A stretch of 44,988 nucleotides of DNA, from IMG/VR virus record IMGVR_UViG_643348544_000004; one strand, 5' to 3'. This DNA comes from a virus. Taxonomy: Duplodnaviria; Heunggongvirae; Uroviricota; Caudoviricetes. The position numbers were made by a program, and so were the translations under genes. Below the pieces are notes generated by a model. The model ran no database searches. It was given only the letters and a program-made list of their open reading frames with translations, and was not told the DNA's origin. Positions 17,794-23,667 of the stretch are shown here, piece by piece. How positions within the stretch are numbered: the stretch's first letter is position 1; each line of letters opens with the position of its first letter.

Positions 17794-17869
17794 GGCCCTT
17801 TAGCTCAGTGGTGAGAGCGAGCGACTCATAATCGCCAGGTCGCTGGTTCAAATCCAGCAAGGGCCACCA
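17794..17869 (+). tRNA. ileZ: tRNA with CAT anticodon, most likely tRNA-Ile2 (lysidine; ileX/ileZ-like)
   Basis: Cloverleaf folded by hand: acceptor GGCCCTT/AAGGGCC, anticodon loop CTCATAA, T-loop TTCAAAT, 3' CCA; close to remembered E. coli ileX. Confidence 0.75.
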
Positions 17870-17876
17870 TCACATA

Positions 17877-17953
17877 CCGCCATTAGCTCATCAGGAAAGA
17901 GCGCCAGCCTTCGAAGCTGGCTGCGCGGGGTTCAAGTCCCCGATGGCGGTCCA
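17877..17953 (+). tRNA. argN: tRNA-Arg (anticodon TCG)
   Basis: Acceptor CCGCCAT/ATGGCGG, anticodon loop CTTCGAA, T-arm GGGGTTCAAGTCCCC, 3' CCA; folded by hand. Confidence 0.65.
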
Positions 17954-17966
17954 TTATCTGCATCAT

Positions 17967-18043
17967 GCGTTGTTAGCTCAGCCGGACAGAGCAATTGCCT
18001 TCTAAGCAATCGGTCACTGGTTCGAATCCAGTACAACGCGCCA
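17967..18043 (+). tRNA. argO: tRNA-Arg (anticodon TCT)
   Basis: Acceptor GCGTTGT/ACAACGC, anticodon loop CTTCTAA, T-loop TTCGAAT, 3' CCA; folded by hand. Confidence 0.75.
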
Positions 18044-18532
18044 CACTTATTTTCCCTGGCTCGCTTTTGCGGGCCTTTTTTTTAAATGTCTCACAATTCA
18101 GACGGTTGACAGTTGTCTGTTTTGCGGGGAGTTTGTTAAAAGAAACTGGCATGGTGAATCCCCCTGTGCGGAGGGGCAATCAGCGAGTAGGTATATGGGA
18201 TAATCGCGGATTCAGGTGCTGGTACTGAATTCACCGGGAGGCACCCGGCACCATGCAATGGCACATAGCGCCACTCTCCAGCCCCTCTCCGGAGGGGCTT
18301 TCTTATGGACAAAAAAAGCCCGCGCTGGGAGACGCGGGCGGCAAGGAATAAACAATAAAACGTGAAGTAATATTTCAGCTGGCGAATAATACCCCATAGT
18401 AATCACTCTGCGCAACTGCGCGGTCTTTTTCGAATTGCGGGCTGTAGTCTCCCTTCTGCCATTGTCCTGTAACTTCCGGACTTCAGCCTGCTCCTTATCT
18501 GACTCACAACATTATCCCGCCCGGGAGGATTC

Positions 18533-20395
18533 ATGACATTTAAACACTACGATGTGGTCAGGGCGGTGTCGCCGTCAGACCTTGCTGATGCACTTGCTCA
18601 AAAAATTCGTGAAGGATGGCAACCATACGGCGGGCCGTTTTCTTCGTATACGGATGATGGCGCAGCACTTATTCAGGCGATTGTCGCAGAAGGTGATGTG
18701 GTCGTCAGTGGTGCAACTGAGCCGGAGTGGTACTACGTCATCGTACTGGCCGGGCAGTCTAATGCCATGGCTTACGGTGAAGGGCTTCCGCTTCCGGATT
18801 CATACGATGCGCCCCATCCGCGCATTAAGCAACTGGCCCGTCGTAACACAGTGACTCCCGGTGGTGAAGTATGCGTATTTAACGACATCATTCCTGCTGA
18901 CCATTGTCTGCATGATGTTCAGGATATGAGTACGATTAACCATCCCCGGGCTGACCTGAGCAAAGGGCAGTACGGCTGTGTCGGACAGGGCTTACATATT
19001 GCCAAAAAACTGCTTCCGTATATCCCTAATAATGCGGGGATCCTGCTGGTACCATGCTGTCGTGGTGGTTCGGCATTCACCCAGGGCACGGAGGGGACAT
19101 TCAGCGAGTCCACGGGGGCCAGTCAGGATTCGGCTCGCTGGGGAGTGGGTAAGCCGTTATATCAGGATCTGCTTTTCCGCACGAAGGCAGCATTGCAGAA
19201 AAACCCGAAAAACGTTTTGCTGGCGATATGCTGGATGCAGGGGGAATTCGATATGAAGAATGCCAGTTACGCCCAGCAGCCAGCAGCATTTCTTGCAATG
19301 GTACAGCAGTTCCGTGCTGACCTTGCCGGGCTGGCGGCGCAGTGTCACGGTGGAAGTCCGGCATCAGTCCCCTGGATTTGTGGCGACACGACATACGCGT
19401 GGAAACAAGAACACGGTACACAATATGAAGTGGTATATGGTGCATATAAAGGTAAAGAATCCCAGCAGATTTATTTTGTTCCCTTTATGACCGATGGTAG
19501 CGGAGTTAATACACCGACAAACAACCCGTCAGAAGATCCTGATATTGCCGGGTCTGGTTATTACGGTTCGGCATCCCGAACGAACAAAAACTGGGTATCA
19601 TCAAATCGCCCGACGCATTTCAGCTCATGGGCGCGTCGTGGCATTATTCCCGATCGTATGGCAACTGCTATTCTGAACGTAGCCGGTCGCACCTTAGCCT
19701 TCATTAGTGGTAAGGCACCGGAAATCAAACCCTCGCCCGGCGGCGACACGCCATCGGGGCCGTCTGAAGATGCATCCGTACGCACAATCTCCCTGTTGCC
19801 GACAGCCGGAGATGCTGCTGCGCAGGGCTGGAGCATTAAGAATGGCGGAATTCAGTTGTCAGATGGTGTATTTAAGATCACCAAGCAGAGCAATAAAGCC
19901 TGGTCCCTGACGCGCCCGGTGGATGACGCAGTCTCCCTGCTGACACGGGGTGGCAGACTGAGCTGTAAGTTTCGACTGTCAGGCGCACTGACCAACAACC
20001 AGTTCGGTCTGGGAATTTATCTGTATACCGATGTAGCGTTACCTGACGTCGTGGCGATGACCGGGACTGGTAACCCGTTCCTGATGTCGTTCTTCACCCA
20101 GACCACAGACGGCAAACTGAATCTGATGCATCACAAGAAAGCAGGAAACACAAAGTTGGGCGAGTTCGGGAATTACAGTAACGACTGGCAGACGCTGGAG
20201 CTGGTGTTCACCGCCGGCAGTGCCACGGTTACTCCGAAACTGAATGGAGTGGCTGGCCCGGCATTCCAGGTCATAAAAGACAGTCTGACAGTGGGACTAA
20301 ATGCACTGACGCTGACGGATATTACCAAAAATGCAACGTATGGCGTTGAGATAGAAAGTCTGGTGCTGGAGATAAATGCACCGGCATCATCATAA
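18533..20395 (+). CDS. Prophage NanS-p-like sialate O-acetylesterase (N-terminal DUF1737-like + SGNH/SASA esterase + C-terminal domain), 620 aa
   Basis: GQSNAMAYG motif typical of sialate O-acetylesterases; position between tRNAs and holin as in Stx-type lambdoid phages. Confidence 0.7.
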
Positions 20396-20544
20396 AAAGT
20401 GAGCCAGTCAAATGGAAGGTATCGTTAAACTCACCGGTAGTGTCAGTGGGTCGTCTGAGACGCCTGCATGAGTTATCAGAGCCATCAGTACTTAACTGGT
20501 GGCTTTTTTATTGTTGTCAGCTTCCGGATAACGGGAGACGGGGT

Positions 20545-20760
20545 ATGTACCAGATGGAAAAAATCACAACAGGTGTGTCATACACCACGTCAGCGGTGGG
20601 AACGGGCTACTGGTTCCTGCAGTTGCTGGACAGGGTTTCCCCGTCTCAGTGGGCGGCAATAGGCGTGCTGGGGAGTCTGCTGTTTGGGCTGCTGACATAT
20701 CTGACTAACCTGTATTTCAAAATCAGAGAGGACCGTCGTAAGGCGGCGCGGGGGGAGTAA
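20545..20760 (+). CDS. S: Holin S (lambdoid Stx-phage type), 71 aa, dual-start motif MYQMEK
   Basis: Sequence [71 protein letters not shown] matches remembered holin; Met1 and Met4 candidate starts. Confidence 0.85.
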
Positions 20761-20764
20761 AGCG

Positions 20765-21571
20765 ATGAAGAAAAAATACGAACTGGGTGTTAAAGGGATA
20801 AATAATTATCCGGATAAGATTACTGTTACTGTGGCACTGGAAATTGGTGGGTATCCGTCACTGTTGTTGCCAGATGTGGCGATTAGTCTTGACCGTACTG
20901 AAGGTGCCACGCTGGAGTTTTACGAAGCTGAGGCGAAAAAGCAGGCGAAGCAGTTTTTCATGGATGTTGCTGCCGGGTTATGTGAAGGGGATGAGCAGTC
21001 GCCGGAAAAGCGCCCCGTAATTTTAGAGGCGCAGAATGTGTGGATAACCTACAAAGGAAAGCTACCGGGAAGAATTACTGGTTCTCTGAAGATGCCGCCG
21101 TCAACACTGCGGTCAGAAAAAGAGGCGTCTTGTCTGCAGTCTGAGTACTCCATTACGGTTAAAAGTGCCGGAGAGGAAGGAAATAAACGTTATTTTATTG
21201 CGTCTGCACCTGATAAAGATCAGGAATGGGAGTGTAACCGGCCATCCTTTGTTGTATACGGAGATGGCGGGAAAATAACCATCTCAGAAAATGGGAAATT
21301 AACACCGCCATCGCACCAGCATAGTGAGGCGCTCATTGAATTTGCCATTGATTACCTGAAGAACAATAAAAAGCAGGGGCTGATGAAGCGCATTGGTCGT
21401 TGCATGGGATATCTGCAGGTAGCAGCTGAGATTGAAATGATGGCCAGTGGTGCTGACAATGATGCAGTTGTGCTGGAGGCTCTTCTGCGTGATTTTGATA
21501 ATACGCCCTTTAAGAAAGCACCTGTTGACTGGATGCAGCCGGGGATGACTTATCTGAAAGGGCGTATATAA
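20765..21571 (+). CDS. Protein of unknown function, 268 aa, inserted between holin and endolysin
   Basis: ATG 5 nt after holin stop, so likely co-transcribed with late genes; no motif or family recognised. Confidence 0.5.
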   Translation: MKKKYELGVKGINNYPDKITVTVALEIGGYPSLLLPDVAISLDRTEGATLEFYEAEAKKQAKQFFMDVAAGLCEGDEQSPEKRPVILEAQNVWITYKGKLPGRITGSLKMPPSTLRSEKEASCLQSEYSITVKSAGEEGNKRYFIASAPDKDQEWECNRPSFVVYGDGGKITISENGKLTPPSHQHSEALIEFAIDYLKNNKKQGLMKRIGRCMGYLQVAAEIEMMASGADNDAVVLEALLRDFDNTPFKKAPVDWMQPGMTYLKGRI

Positions 21572-21580
21572 GGTGGCTCG

Positions 21581-21895
21581 TTATCTGTTGCTGGATAATC
21601 GACTGAAGATGCGTTCTTTTTGTGTTTTTGCGTAATGATTGTCCCACTCACAATCAAGGTAGCTTAATTCTTCATTCAACCAGTTATTTATATTGGTCTT
21701 AATACGCATAAGCATGGGCTGTGTTAATGCTCTGGCGATAATGCCGAGAGTCACAGGTGTGAGATGTCCATACGGCTCAGCCTGAATGGATTTTACTGCA
21801 TCGTGTTCTTGTGGGAGGAGTAAGAGGCACTCTGATTTTACCCGCTCATTTATGGCTTGCAGGCATAAATCATAATTATGTTGATCGTTATGCAT
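21581..21895 (-). CDS. Protein of unknown function, 104 aa, convergent with the 268-aa gene
   Basis: GAGG RBS about 8 nt upstream of ATG; inverted repeat in its 5' region; no family recognised. Confidence 0.45.
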   Translation of the reverse strand: MHNDQHNYDLCLQAINERVKSECLLLLPQEHDAVKSIQAEPYGHLTPVTLGIIARALTQPMLMRIKTNINNWLNEELSYLDCEWDNHYAKTQKERIFSRLSSNR

Positions 21896-21908
21896 GGTTA
21901 ATCCTCTA

Positions 21909-21932
21909 CTGAAATTGTCAGATATATTTCAG
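21909..21932. promoter_or_regulatory. Perfect 7-bp inverted repeat CTGAAAT-N10-ATTTCAG in the 5' region of the minus-strand 104-aa gene
   Basis: Read directly; lies 14-39 nt upstream of the minus-strand start codon. Confidence 0.35.
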
Positions 21933-22023
21933 CCATCAGGAAAAACGCCAGTGTCCTACCGCTGGCGGGCTGAAGATTTAACATATCCAGGGATTCGGAA
22001 CCGATAAATCCTGATAAATATCC

Positions 22024-22557
22024 ATGAACACCAAAATCAAATATGGCCTGTCGGCTGCCGTTCTGGCGTTGATTGCCATCGGTGCGCCTGCGCCTGATAT
22101 TCTCGACCAGTTTCTGGATGAAAAAGAAGGTAACCACACAACGGCATACCGTGATGGTGCGGGTATCTGGACCATCTGCCGCGGTGCCACAATGGTGGAT
22201 GGTAAACCTGTTATTCCGGGCATGAAACTGTCGAAGGAAAAATGCGACCAGGTTAATGCCATTGAACGGGATAAGGCGCTGGCATGGGTGGAGCGCAATA
22301 TTAAAGTTCCACTGACCGAACCACAGAAAGCGGGTATAGCGTCATTCTGTCCCTATAACATTGGCCCCGGTAAGTGTTTCCCGTCGACGTTTTATAAGCG
22401 GCTGAATGCTGGTGACCGCAGGGGAGCGTGTGAGGCGATTCGCTGGTGGATTAAGGACGGTGGCAGAGACTGCCGTATCCGCTCAAATAACTGTTATGGT
22501 CAGGTATCCCGTCGTGACCAGGAGAGCGCGCTGGCGTGCTGGGGAATCGACAGATAA
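22024..22557 (+). CDS. R: Endolysin R (phage lysozyme, likely SAR type with N-terminal signal-anchor-release helix), 177 aa
   Basis: N-terminal Gly/Ala-rich weakly hydrophobic segment (LSAAVLALIAIGAPAP) followed by lysozyme-like domain resembling phage 21-type endolysin. Confidence 0.8.
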   Translation: MNTKIKYGLSAAVLALIAIGAPAPDILDQFLDEKEGNHTTAYRDGAGIWTICRGATMVDGKPVIPGMKLSKEKCDQVNAIERDKALAWVERNIKVPLTEPQKAGIASFCPYNIGPGKCFPSTFYKRLNAGDRRGACEAIRWWIKDGGRDCRIRSNNCYGQVSRRDQESALACWGIDR

Positions 22558-22649
22558 GCAGAATATTTTGCTGAAAAATAAGGCATGGCCACGCGGGCGG
22601 ATAACACGAAATCCTGCGAACTGGCGAAACGTAAGTGAATAAAAGTAAA

Positions 22650-22687
22650 AACCCCGTTTGTTGGCAGCAAGCGGGGTTTTGTTTTTA
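22650..22687 (+). terminator. Rho-independent terminator downstream of endolysin
   Basis: AACCCCGTTTG...CAAGCGGGGTT hairpin followed by TTGTTTTTA. Confidence 0.5.
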
Positions 22688-22849
22688 TGGCAGTAAGCTA
22701 TGGGAGGCTGCCTTGATTGATTTTAGCAAACTGATTAGGGAGTTGCGACTCATGATTAGTCAATTACCAAACTGGAAATTTTTGCTGGTCTGGAGCATCC
22801 CTTTTTTATGGGTAGTATCCCAGTTAATTGTGGCAATTAAGGGGTAGCT

Positions 22850-22981
22850 ATGTCAGACAAACTCATAACGCCGGCAAAGGTCCTGTGTGTGATTGTCGGT
22901 ATTTCATTTTCACTAATGCTGGTTGCTCTTTTTCTGTCCCTCGCCTGGGTGATGTTGTCTTCGTCGGGGCTGCTGGGGTGA
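22850..22981 (+). CDS. Small predicted membrane peptide, 43 aa (MSDKLITPAKVLCVIVGISFSLMLVALFLSLAWVMLSSSGLLG)
   Basis: Manual translation; one hydrophobic helix; below track cutoff. Confidence 0.3.
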   Translation: MSDKLITPAKVLCVIVGISFSLMLVALFLSLAWVMLSSSGLLG

Positions 22982-22983
22982 CA

Positions 22984-23100
22984 GTGACTGATGACATCAG
23001 CAGAGCGCTGGCTTTTGCTATTAAGTGGGTGGCTGTTGGTATTGCTGTGTCTCCGATGCTATATGGGCTGGCAAAACTGGTCATTGCGCTGAAATCGTGA
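22984..23100 (+). CDS. Small predicted membrane peptide, about 38 aa, GTG start (…DDISRALAFAIKWVAVGIAVSPMLYGLAKLVIALKS)
   Basis: C-terminal part of the 90-aa track frame; paralogous to the following 28-aa peptide (shared RA[LM]AFAI[KR]xVA motif). Confidence 0.25.
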   Translation: MTDDISRALAFAIKWVAVGIAVSPMLYGLAKLVIALKS

Positions 23101-23111
23101 ACTTTAAAAAG

Positions 23112-23198
23112 ATGAGTGCTGAACTTATTCGGGCAATGGCATTTGCCATTCGTATTGTGGCCATTGCTGTTCTGGTCTGGGCAATCCGTTGGTGGTGA
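23112..23198 (+). CDS. Small predicted membrane peptide, 28 aa ([28 protein letters not shown])
   Basis: Manual translation; stop TGA 1 nt before Rz ATG. Confidence 0.3.
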
Positions 23199-23199
23199 T

Positions 23200-23667
23200 A
23201 TGAACCGTGTTCTGTGTGTGGTGATTATTGTCATGCTGGTGGCCTGTGGTGCGCTTAGTCTGGGGCTGAATCATTACCGTGATAACGCCATTACCTACAA
23301 AGCCCAGCGCGACAAAAATGTCAGAGAACTGAAGCTGGCGAACGCGGCAATTACTGACATGCAGATGCGTCAGCGTGATGTTGCTGCGCTCGATGCAAAA
23401 TACTCGAGGGAATTAGCCGATGCGAGAGCTGAAAATGAAACTCTTCGCGCTGACGTTGCCGCTGGTCGTAAGCGCCTGCGTATCAACGCCACCTGTCCAG
23501 GTCCCGTGCGTGAAGCCACCGGCACCGCCCGCGTGGATAATGCAACCGGCCCCCGACTGGCAGACACCGCTGAACGGGATTATTTCACCCTCAGAGAGCG
23601 GCTGATGACGATGCACAAGCAACTGGAAGGGGCGCAGGAATATATCCGTACTCAGTGCCTGAAATAA
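23200..23667 (+). CDS. Rz: Spanin inner-membrane subunit Rz, 155 aa
   Basis: N-terminal TM helix, coiled-coil-like remainder, embedded Rz1 in +1 frame. Confidence 0.75.
23435..23605 (+). CDS. Rz1: Spanin outer-membrane lipoprotein Rz1 (embedded in Rz), 56 aa
   Basis: [15 protein letters not shown] lipobox-like signal, Pro-rich mature region; entirely within Rz in another frame. Confidence 0.7.

Follow-up and report, generated by a model that had tools for sequence, protein, structure and literature searches.

The DNA analyzed here is IMG/VR record IMGVR_UViG_643348544_000004, a stretch of 44,988 nucleotides (nt) from a lambdoid Escherichia coli prophage that is referred to below as the window. 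At positions 20765 to 22023, between the holin gene (S) and the endolysin (lysozyme) gene (R), it contains two convergent open reading frames (ORFs): ORF-A, with 268 codons on the plus strand, and ORF-B, with 104 codons on the minus strand. We put a probability of about 0.7 on the reading that the two are independent of each other and share a mosaic hotspot within a lysis cassette of the phage 21 type. ORF-A encodes a long, mosaic representative of the YdfR family and is one of the ordinary, conserved accessory genes of lysis cassettes. ORF-B resembles a moron: it is a rare cargo gene that would have been gained or lost separately and that lies opposite to late transcription. The segment as a whole is ordinary lambdoid phage mosaicism involving two uncharacterized proteins, and is not surprising. 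A preliminary description of this DNA had treated the two genes as one insert; the positions that it gave for the holin stop (20760), the 268-codon frame (20765–21571, plus strand), the 104-codon frame (21581–21895, minus strand) and the lysozyme start (22024) were all reproduced.

Occupancy of the slot between holin and lysozyme was assessed in 80 IMG/VR loci with a holin at least 97% identical to that of the window, chosen without selecting for ORF-A. The lysozyme was also present in 71 of these. A gene with the DUF1327 domain of the YdfR family fills the slot in 48 of the 71, and a gene with only the C-terminal module of ORF-A (the C-module) in 11, giving 59 loci with a gene of the ORF-A kind. 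The slot is empty in 10 loci, with holin and lysozyme separated by 1–4 nt, and has other content in the remaining 2. A search of 5,426 complete E. coli genomes gave matches in 4,426; of 25 rows sampled at even spacing from its results, 24 likewise have a YdfR/DUF1327 gene annotated between holin and lysozyme. In the Qin prophage of E. coli K-12, ydfR (PF07041, 103 residues) lies between a class II holin gene and the lysozyme gene rrrQ in the same orientation as ORF-A, and its stop codon overlaps the rrrQ start, a coupling as tight as that of ORF-A. Given the 10 abutting loci and the Qin arrangement, S directly before R is the minority state of this cassette type. The preliminary description had taken direct succession of S and R as its baseline; here the ORF-A position is normally filled. 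It had also considered that both genes might prove to be ordinary, conserved cassette genes of known function, and for ORF-A the first part of this is true, but the second is not.

The same two genes are found in the same arrangement in phage 86 (AB255436 / NC_008464), which converts its host to production of Shiga toxin 2 (Stx2). There they are orf5 and orf6 (YP_794052 and YP_794053), and orf6, labeled ‘hypothetical protein’, is 100% identical to ORF-B at the protein level. Phage 86 differs in having stx2 upstream and ant after R, neither of which is present in the window.

ORF-A starts 4 nt past the holin stop, and its Shine-Dalgarno sequence, GGGGGAG, is located inside the holin 3′ end. Together with an orientation shared with S, R and Rz, this argues for synthesis from the late transcript, where ORF-A would be produced along with the lysis proteins. 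The match to PF07041 scores 145.5 bits (cut-off 25; E 5.8e-43), with residues 1–100 on profile positions 1–88 of 93, and the label in both phage 86 and RefSeq is ‘YdfR family protein’. Over residues 1–74 of both proteins, identity to YdfR is 46%; YdfR lacks the basic linker and the C-module of about 118 residues that ORF-A has. Proteins of this family are built from blocks: DUF1327 (approximately residues 1–75), the basic linker (PEKRP...LRSEK), optional coiled-coil blocks and the C-module. With 268 residues and extra modules, ORF-A falls outside the single-domain form of approximately 100–115 residues. Its long mosaic form corresponds to a cluster of 584 member sequences (P0001). DUF1327 is also seen alone (103–116 residues) or with other tails, and the C-module is also present in proteins of 185–213 residues that have no DUF1327. 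In one holin-lysozyme interval (L137, 1612–2866), a 214-residue C-module protein is followed by a separate 75-residue DUF1327 gene (Pfam E 2e-8), so the parts occur both fused and split. An alternative C-terminal module of YdfR-family proteins (305-residue cluster P0092, 275 contigs) overlaps a 233-residue minus-strand ORF by about 250 nt (L147, 2717–3655; L215, 3120–3962), and one of these two frames may be spurious.

No relative of the C-module was found in Pfam or the PDB. A candidate relation to the KEOPS protein Pcc1 was dropped, as the phmmer E-value of 0.037 weakened to 0.17 when a profile was used. ORF-A is a soluble protein with an isoelectric point (pI) of 5.9 and no transmembrane segment (maximum 19-residue Kyte-Doolittle score 1.2). 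Neither ORF-A nor ORF-B has a match to a lysis family (holin or antiholin, signal-anchor-release (SAR) endolysin, spanin), a SAR segment or a lipobox. PADLOC-DB v2 gave no match for either at E up to 1, and all PHROG matches of the two are of ‘unknown function’.

Ratios of non-synonymous to synonymous substitution rates (dN/dS) are 0.27–0.43 for the C-module and 0.2–0.6 for the N-terminal domain, which indicates that the entire ORF-A frame is coding. Note that the RefSeq annotation, made with the Prokaryotic Genome Annotation Pipeline (PGAP), stops after 112 codons of ORF-A and labels this part ‘YdfR family protein, incomplete, pseudogene’ (L002, 3326–3661; L136, 5174–5509). The remaining 480 bp or so carry no annotation, even though all 268 codons form an intact, conserved frame that is under purifying selection. 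This call looks like an annotation artefact of a short family model, due to ORF-A exceeding the length of the single-domain family.

A lead on what ORF-A might do comes from YdfR. Residues 1–72 of YdfR were recovered in a bacterial two-hybrid screen as interacting with RNase E 1–597 (2026; PMC13232886), and both Rne 1–598 and DNase-resistant nucleic acid co-purified with full-length Strep-YdfR (PMC13232886). By homology, the N-terminal domain of ORF-A would most likely bind RNA, the catalytic half of RNase E, or both. The core of its DUF1327 domain (residues 1–74) is predicted to be beta-beta-beta-alpha, and the AlphaFold2 model has this arrangement at a predicted local distance difference test score (pLDDT) of 60–85. 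Homology to YdfR and the model are two weak lines that agree on an RNA/RNase E reading, in which the domain may be a module that is produced late in infection and binds RNA, RNase E or both. In that case ORF-A would tune RNA processing at that stage and not act on the envelope.

ORF-B behaves differently from ORF-A in its distribution. When the window was compared by blastn with locus L072, positions 20400–21591 and 22001–22700 aligned and 21592–22000 were unmatched, which defines a segment of 409 bp containing ORF-B, its leader and a hairpin. Loci L072–L078 have the same 268-residue ORF-A (identity of about 96% in the N-terminal and middle parts and of 89% in the C-module) and no ORF-B, and their lysozyme starts 45 nt past the ORF-A stop. 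L072 retains the final 11 nt of ORF-B with the stop codon, and the junctions share a GATAA-like motif; this suggests that L072 is a deletion derivative. Whether or not a deletion was involved, the segment is a clean presence/absence polymorphism. It is thus the ORF-B segment, and not a two-gene unit, that comes and goes. The preliminary description had asked whether the pair always travels together, and it does not: among the best 80 loci found with the ORF-A C-module, 55 lack ORF-B, the lysozyme start being 40–46 nt past the ORF-A stop, and a 54%-identical ORF-B relative stands between holin and lysozyme with no ORF-A-like gene in L133–135. A further relative (52% identical) adjoins a diverged C-module gene in L127.

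ORF-B is present in 4 of the 71 holin-sampled loci, and its segment, covered to at least 80%, in 94 of the 5,426 complete E. coli genomes. Genomes of the O104:H4 outbreak lineage carry the 409-bp segment at 100% identity, with the protein WP_000551290.1. The AT-richness previously judged by eye was confirmed by a computed profile: the G+C content is 0.466 for ORF-A, 0.410 for ORF-B and 0.421 for the 409-bp segment, compared to 0.546 for the holin gene, 0.530 for the lysozyme gene and 0.523 for the whole window. Among windows of 409 bp, only 3.4% reach the AT content of the segment. The earlier idea of cargo therefore stands for ORF-B, which is on the opposite strand, AT-rich and absent from near-identical cassettes, but not for ORF-A and ORF-B as one system.

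Relatives of ORF-B with 31–38% identity were also seen outside phages (L130, 204–1297; L131, 2253–3300; L132), in surrounds resembling conjugative elements (TraG_N, integrase, a paralogue of ribosomal protein L31). The relative in L130 follows an unrelated 226-residue protein with an N-terminal multi-helix membrane domain, and the gene upstream of the relative is shortened to 97 residues in L131 and L132. No relation between the 226-residue protein and the C-module was found with hhalign (probability <1%).

Judged from its sequence and its predicted structure, ORF-B is a real protein-coding gene. It is under purifying selection (dN/dS 0.25–0.44) and, as described previously, has its own ribosome-binding site, AGAGGA on the complement of 21903–21908, which is kept in diverged alleles. 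AlphaFold2 predicts a confident five-helix bundle (pLDDT 88, predicted template modeling score 0.81). The protein is mildly acidic (pI 6.2) and has no transmembrane segment (maximum 19-residue Kyte-Doolittle score 1.2). A search of 1.84 billion representative proteins yielded 17 relatives, the full-length ones having 105–120 residues and 28–48% identity, with conserved motifs AEPYGxLT...ALTP, WxNEELSY and QKxRxF. A profile search yielded 41, and every named source was E. coli; a scan of one genome per species gave no confirmed relative. ORF-B is a member of a small, E. coli-centered orphan family. Neither the ORF-B sequence itself nor profiles of it had a match in Pfam, NCBIfam, PADLOC or PDB sequences, and no sequence or fold relative of known function was found. 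The previous statement that neither protein could be assigned to a family consequently holds for ORF-B and fails for ORF-A, given the score of the latter against PF07041. The best weak matches, to a designed repeat protein (E 0.014) and to LRR19-TM (E 0.17), were treated as chance. A YadA-type trimeric autotransporter adhesin (P0134, 3,579 residues) matched ORF-B residues 54–94 ten times with E 5e-22 and was rejected as a coiled-coil repeat artefact; this match is a warning about E-values for short helical queries. Literature searches found nothing on WP_000551290, and DUF1327 was found named in only one paper, on comparative genomics.

Morons are autonomous extra genes located between genes that are adjacent in relatives, such as bor and lom of lambda, as described by Hendrix and colleagues. 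Like these, ORF-B is the only gene of a discrete segment of deviant base composition (G+C 0.41–0.42 against 0.53–0.55 for its neighbors), inserted between genes that are adjacent in L072–L078, where the window has 409 extra bases; it also lies opposite to the surrounding operon. Bor and Lom are envelope proteins, whereas ORF-B is predicted to be a soluble cytoplasmic protein. An own promoter and terminator are defining features of morons. ORF-B has a Shine-Dalgarno sequence; promoter scans upstream of it were negative, and the stable stem-loop 3′ of it has no U-tract.

Several RNA structures surround ORF-B. An 8-bp hairpin just upstream of the gene (21946–21967) is followed on the minus strand by T5 and looks like a terminator on that strand. 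Hairpin and T-run would insulate ORF-B from transcription through the antisense strand of R, which would leave about 50 nt for a promoter. The best candidate for a −10 element is GACAAT, 19 nt from the ATG. A long stem-loop at 21501–21567 has a predicted stability of −30.1 kcal/mol (z = −4.65; 0 of 200 shuffles as stable) and may be the 3′-end structure of the ORF-B transcript. Searching 20300–23200 against Rfam gave no match at E up to 1. The perfect inverted repeat that had been noted in the 5′ region of ORF-B is present (21909–21932) but is broken in the diverged alleles L031 and L004. Because it is not conserved, we rejected it as an operator and gave it no weight. Another repeat, at 21848–21870 within the ORF-B coding sequence, matches at 9 of 10 positions only and is not perfect.

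Cargo genes vary at the spot immediately upstream of R, a hotspot that the conserved hairpin delimits and where at least four other, unrelated opposite-strand genes are found (Table 1). These alternative genes sit just upstream of R in prophages that have the same holin and lysozyme. None belongs to a Pfam family, and the sole PADLOC signal among them is a weak, partial match of the 116-residue protein to PDC-S51 (E 1e-5). Comparison by hhalign of ORF-B with the 91- and 116-residue proteins revealed no relation (probabilities <1%). The hairpin and about 56 nt to its right are common to the window and to L137, L139, L145, L147, L163 and L215. In L137 the stem has one compensatory C-G to T-A change; in L154 the hairpin differs and only the last 45 nt or so before R are shared. 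The position for cargo is the interval between the end of the plus-strand gene and the hairpin. The conserved hairpin and the roughly 56 nt before the lysozyme could constitute an RNA element of the late transcript or an anchor for recombination. The 90-residue and 79–91-residue genes run 35–68 nt into the 3′ end of a shortened ORF-A, which points to replacement of the ORF-A tail and not to partnership. Across 114 distinct holin-lysozyme intervals, each antisense gene is found with a single plus-strand architecture. Linkage of the genes within the same variable block accounts for this pattern, and functional pairing is not needed.

Temperate phages have variable hotspots for defense and other cargo genes, for example those of P2 and P4. 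The slot upstream of R resembles these in presenting unrelated genes at one fixed site with conserved flanks. It differs in having single small occupants and no known defense model beyond the weak, partial PDC-S51 match.

Table 1. Features of the lysis cassette in the window, and other genes found at the ORF-B position in related loci.
Feature	Position or locus	Strand	Remarks
Class II (phage 21 S-type) holin, 71 residues	20545–20760	+	MYQM dual start; PF04971 Phage_holin_2_1, E 9e-33; PHROG holin
ORF-A, 268 residues	20765–21571	+	Long mosaic YdfR/DUF1327 member; Pfam; phrog_1085 over full length
DUF1327 domain of ORF-A, residues 1–100	20765–21064	+	Pfam PF07041
C-module of ORF-A, residues 151–268	21215–21568	+	About 118 residues; ECNRPSF...GRCMGYLQVAAEIE...TYLKGRI
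Long stem-loop 3′ of ORF-B, within ORF-A 3′ coding end	21501–21567	−	Inverted repeat I1, 15-nt arms, 93%
ORF-B, 104 residues	21581–21895	−	Soluble five-helix protein (predicted); phrog_1853; WP_000551290.1 ‘hypothetical protein’
Presence/absence segment, 409 bp	21592–22000		ORF-B, leader and hairpin; blastn boundaries, G+C 0.421, junction sequences
ORF-B Shine-Dalgarno sequence AGAGGA	21903–21908	−	7 nt before ATG; read from sequence
Perfect 7-bp inverted repeat, ORF-B leader	21909–21932		CTGAAAT-N10-ATTTCAG (21909–21915 / 21926–21932)
Hairpin, 8-bp stem	21946–21967		CGCCAGTG-N6-CGCTGGCG; also given as CGCCAGTG-loop-CACTGGCG
Phage lysozyme (endolysin)	22024–22557	+	PF00959, E 2.8e-25; PHROG endolysin
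Rz homologue	23116–23667
Alternative gene, 79–91 residues	L139, L145, L163	−	‘DUF1823 containing protein’ in phage PhiR5_1
Alternative gene, 90 residues	L154	−
Alternative gene, 116 residues	L137	−	Convergent to 75-residue DUF1327 gene
Alternative gene, 233 residues	L147, L215	−

Several results weigh against the reading of two independent elements as set out above. Many of the sampled loci are nearly identical E. coli prophages, and counts of loci therefore do not represent independent events. ORF-B lies between holin and lysozyme, convergent to a C-module gene, in 42 of the 42 IMG/VR loci found with it, and the two diverge together (100/100, 81/68 and 55/52% identity); this adjacency and joint divergence keep a functional link in play. 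The consensus scan found no minus-strand promoter, and a looser one found no sigma-70-like promoter matching at 8 or more of 12 positions in the 165 nt upstream of ORF-B, which makes its expression in the lysogen uncertain, and the stem-loop at 21501–21567 has no U-tract. As for ORF-A, its AlphaFold2 model is poor overall (pLDDT 50), matches of its N-terminal domain to double-stranded RNA-binding domains (alpha-beta-beta-beta-alpha) are weak and come from that same model, and overproduction of YdfR changed few transcripts (PMC13232886).

If the two elements are independent, ORF-B would most likely act by binding a partner protein and would most likely be expressed in the lysogen, free of opposing late transcription. 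As a guess, its benefit might be protection of the lysogen, by superinfection exclusion or defense, or some other modulation of the host. These suggestions on lysogen expression and protection derive from position and analogy only. An extended version, in which the junction upstream of R is a true site of cargo exchange marked by the hairpin at 21946–21967 and swaps small lysogen-expressed genes, with ORF-B as a new small helical protein protecting the lysogen, is in our estimate rather unlikely. If it were true, ORF-B would protect by excluding other phages or by preventing premature lysis. It might then work with or against an RNase E-binding ORF-A, and would be carried by the O104:H4 outbreak lineage among others.

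Quite unlikely is a role for ORF-B in control of lysis, as a small cytoplasmic binder of the pinholin, the endolysin or ORF-A that prevents accidental lysis of the lysogen or tunes its timing. Phage copies of ORF-B are always inside the lysis cassette, divergent from R, and in the loci resembling conjugative elements a relative follows the 226-residue membrane-domain protein, so that in both settings kin of ORF-B are near a membrane protein. However, 67 of 71 cassettes with the same holin and lysozyme lack ORF-B, unrelated genes occupy the same site, and ORF-B has no similarity to any lysis family. Holin control usually operates via membrane topology (S21 68/71), whereas ORF-B is soluble.

We consider it improbable that the ORF-A C-module and ORF-B form a cognate system, whether effector and antidote, toxin and immunity protein or two-part exclusion, with a DUF1327 head bearing interchangeable C-terminal effectors that each have an opposite-strand partner. 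The adjacency in all 42 viral loci is seen with DUF1327 present or not and again in L127, the divergence of the two is correlated, and every other antisense gene is tied to one plus-strand architecture. Each gene nevertheless occurs without the other, which makes a cognate pair unlikely: the C-module lacks ORF-B in the 55 loci mentioned above, including L072–L078 with the same 268-residue protein, and an ORF-B relative is alone between holin and lysozyme in L133–135. Other relatives follow an unrelated membrane protein in TraG/integrase surroundings. The two genes converge and form no operon, the 90- and 79–91-residue genes overlap and shorten ORF-A in the manner of replacements, and neither PADLOC nor Pfam or NCBIfam toxin/antitoxin families gave a match. 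Linkage in one variable block of DNA explains the joint divergence. 

Finally, it is highly improbable that the ORF-B protein is irrelevant, with antisense transcription from its side across ORF-A and S damping leaky late genes, or with ORF-B as a decaying remnant: its orientation opposite to the late operon, the strong RNA structure 3′ of it inside ORF-A and its lack of a recognizable promoter would fit, but dN/dS is 0.25–0.44, length (104–107 residues) and motifs (AEPYGxLT, WxNEELSY, QKxRxF) are kept down to 28% identity, the fold is predicted with confidence and the Shine-Dalgarno sequence is intact and conserved.

The holin and lysozyme genes form the left and right borders of the slot. 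The likely holin start is 20545, and the RefSeq label is ‘class II holin family protein’. A Gly/Ala-rich hydrophobic stretch at the N-terminus suggests that the lysozyme is a SAR-type endolysin. A terminator-like hairpin with a T-run is located within the late operon at 20478–20506 (plus strand), about 40 nt 5′ of the holin start; it has 12 pairs (AGAGCCATCAGT...GGCTTT TTTATTG). Another strong terminator-like hairpin, of 15 pairs plus a T-run, lies directly 3′ of the lysozyme gene (22648–22680). A second variable stretch, between R and Rz (22558–23115), contains small ORFs with hydrophobic stretches 3′ of that hairpin, for example one of 43 residues at 22850–22981. At this position phage 86 has ant, and the prophage of E. 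coli TUM13773 has RefSeq hypothetical proteins of 60 and 43 residues.

Over window positions 20440–22560, DNA identity is 97.2% with phage 86 and 99.6% with the TUM13773 prophage. At 17794–18532, three tRNA genes (Met-CAT, Arg-TCG and Arg-TCT) are followed after 490 nt by a nanS-p-type esterase gene (DUF1737-SASA-DUF6645), a combination typical of Stx phages. In phage 86, stx2AB is upstream of the esterase gene; no stx genes are present between the tRNA cluster and the esterase gene of the window. The window is related to Stx phages without being one itself.

With respect to annotation, the full 268-residue frame of ORF-A is conserved and selected, yet many E. coli genomes have it cut to a 112-codon ‘pseudogene’. 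The slot upstream of R, having at least five alternative occupants, is worth screening for exclusion or defense functions. The YdfR-family gene is widespread, and the link of its N-terminal domain to RNase E and RNA provides a concrete hypothesis for what it may do.

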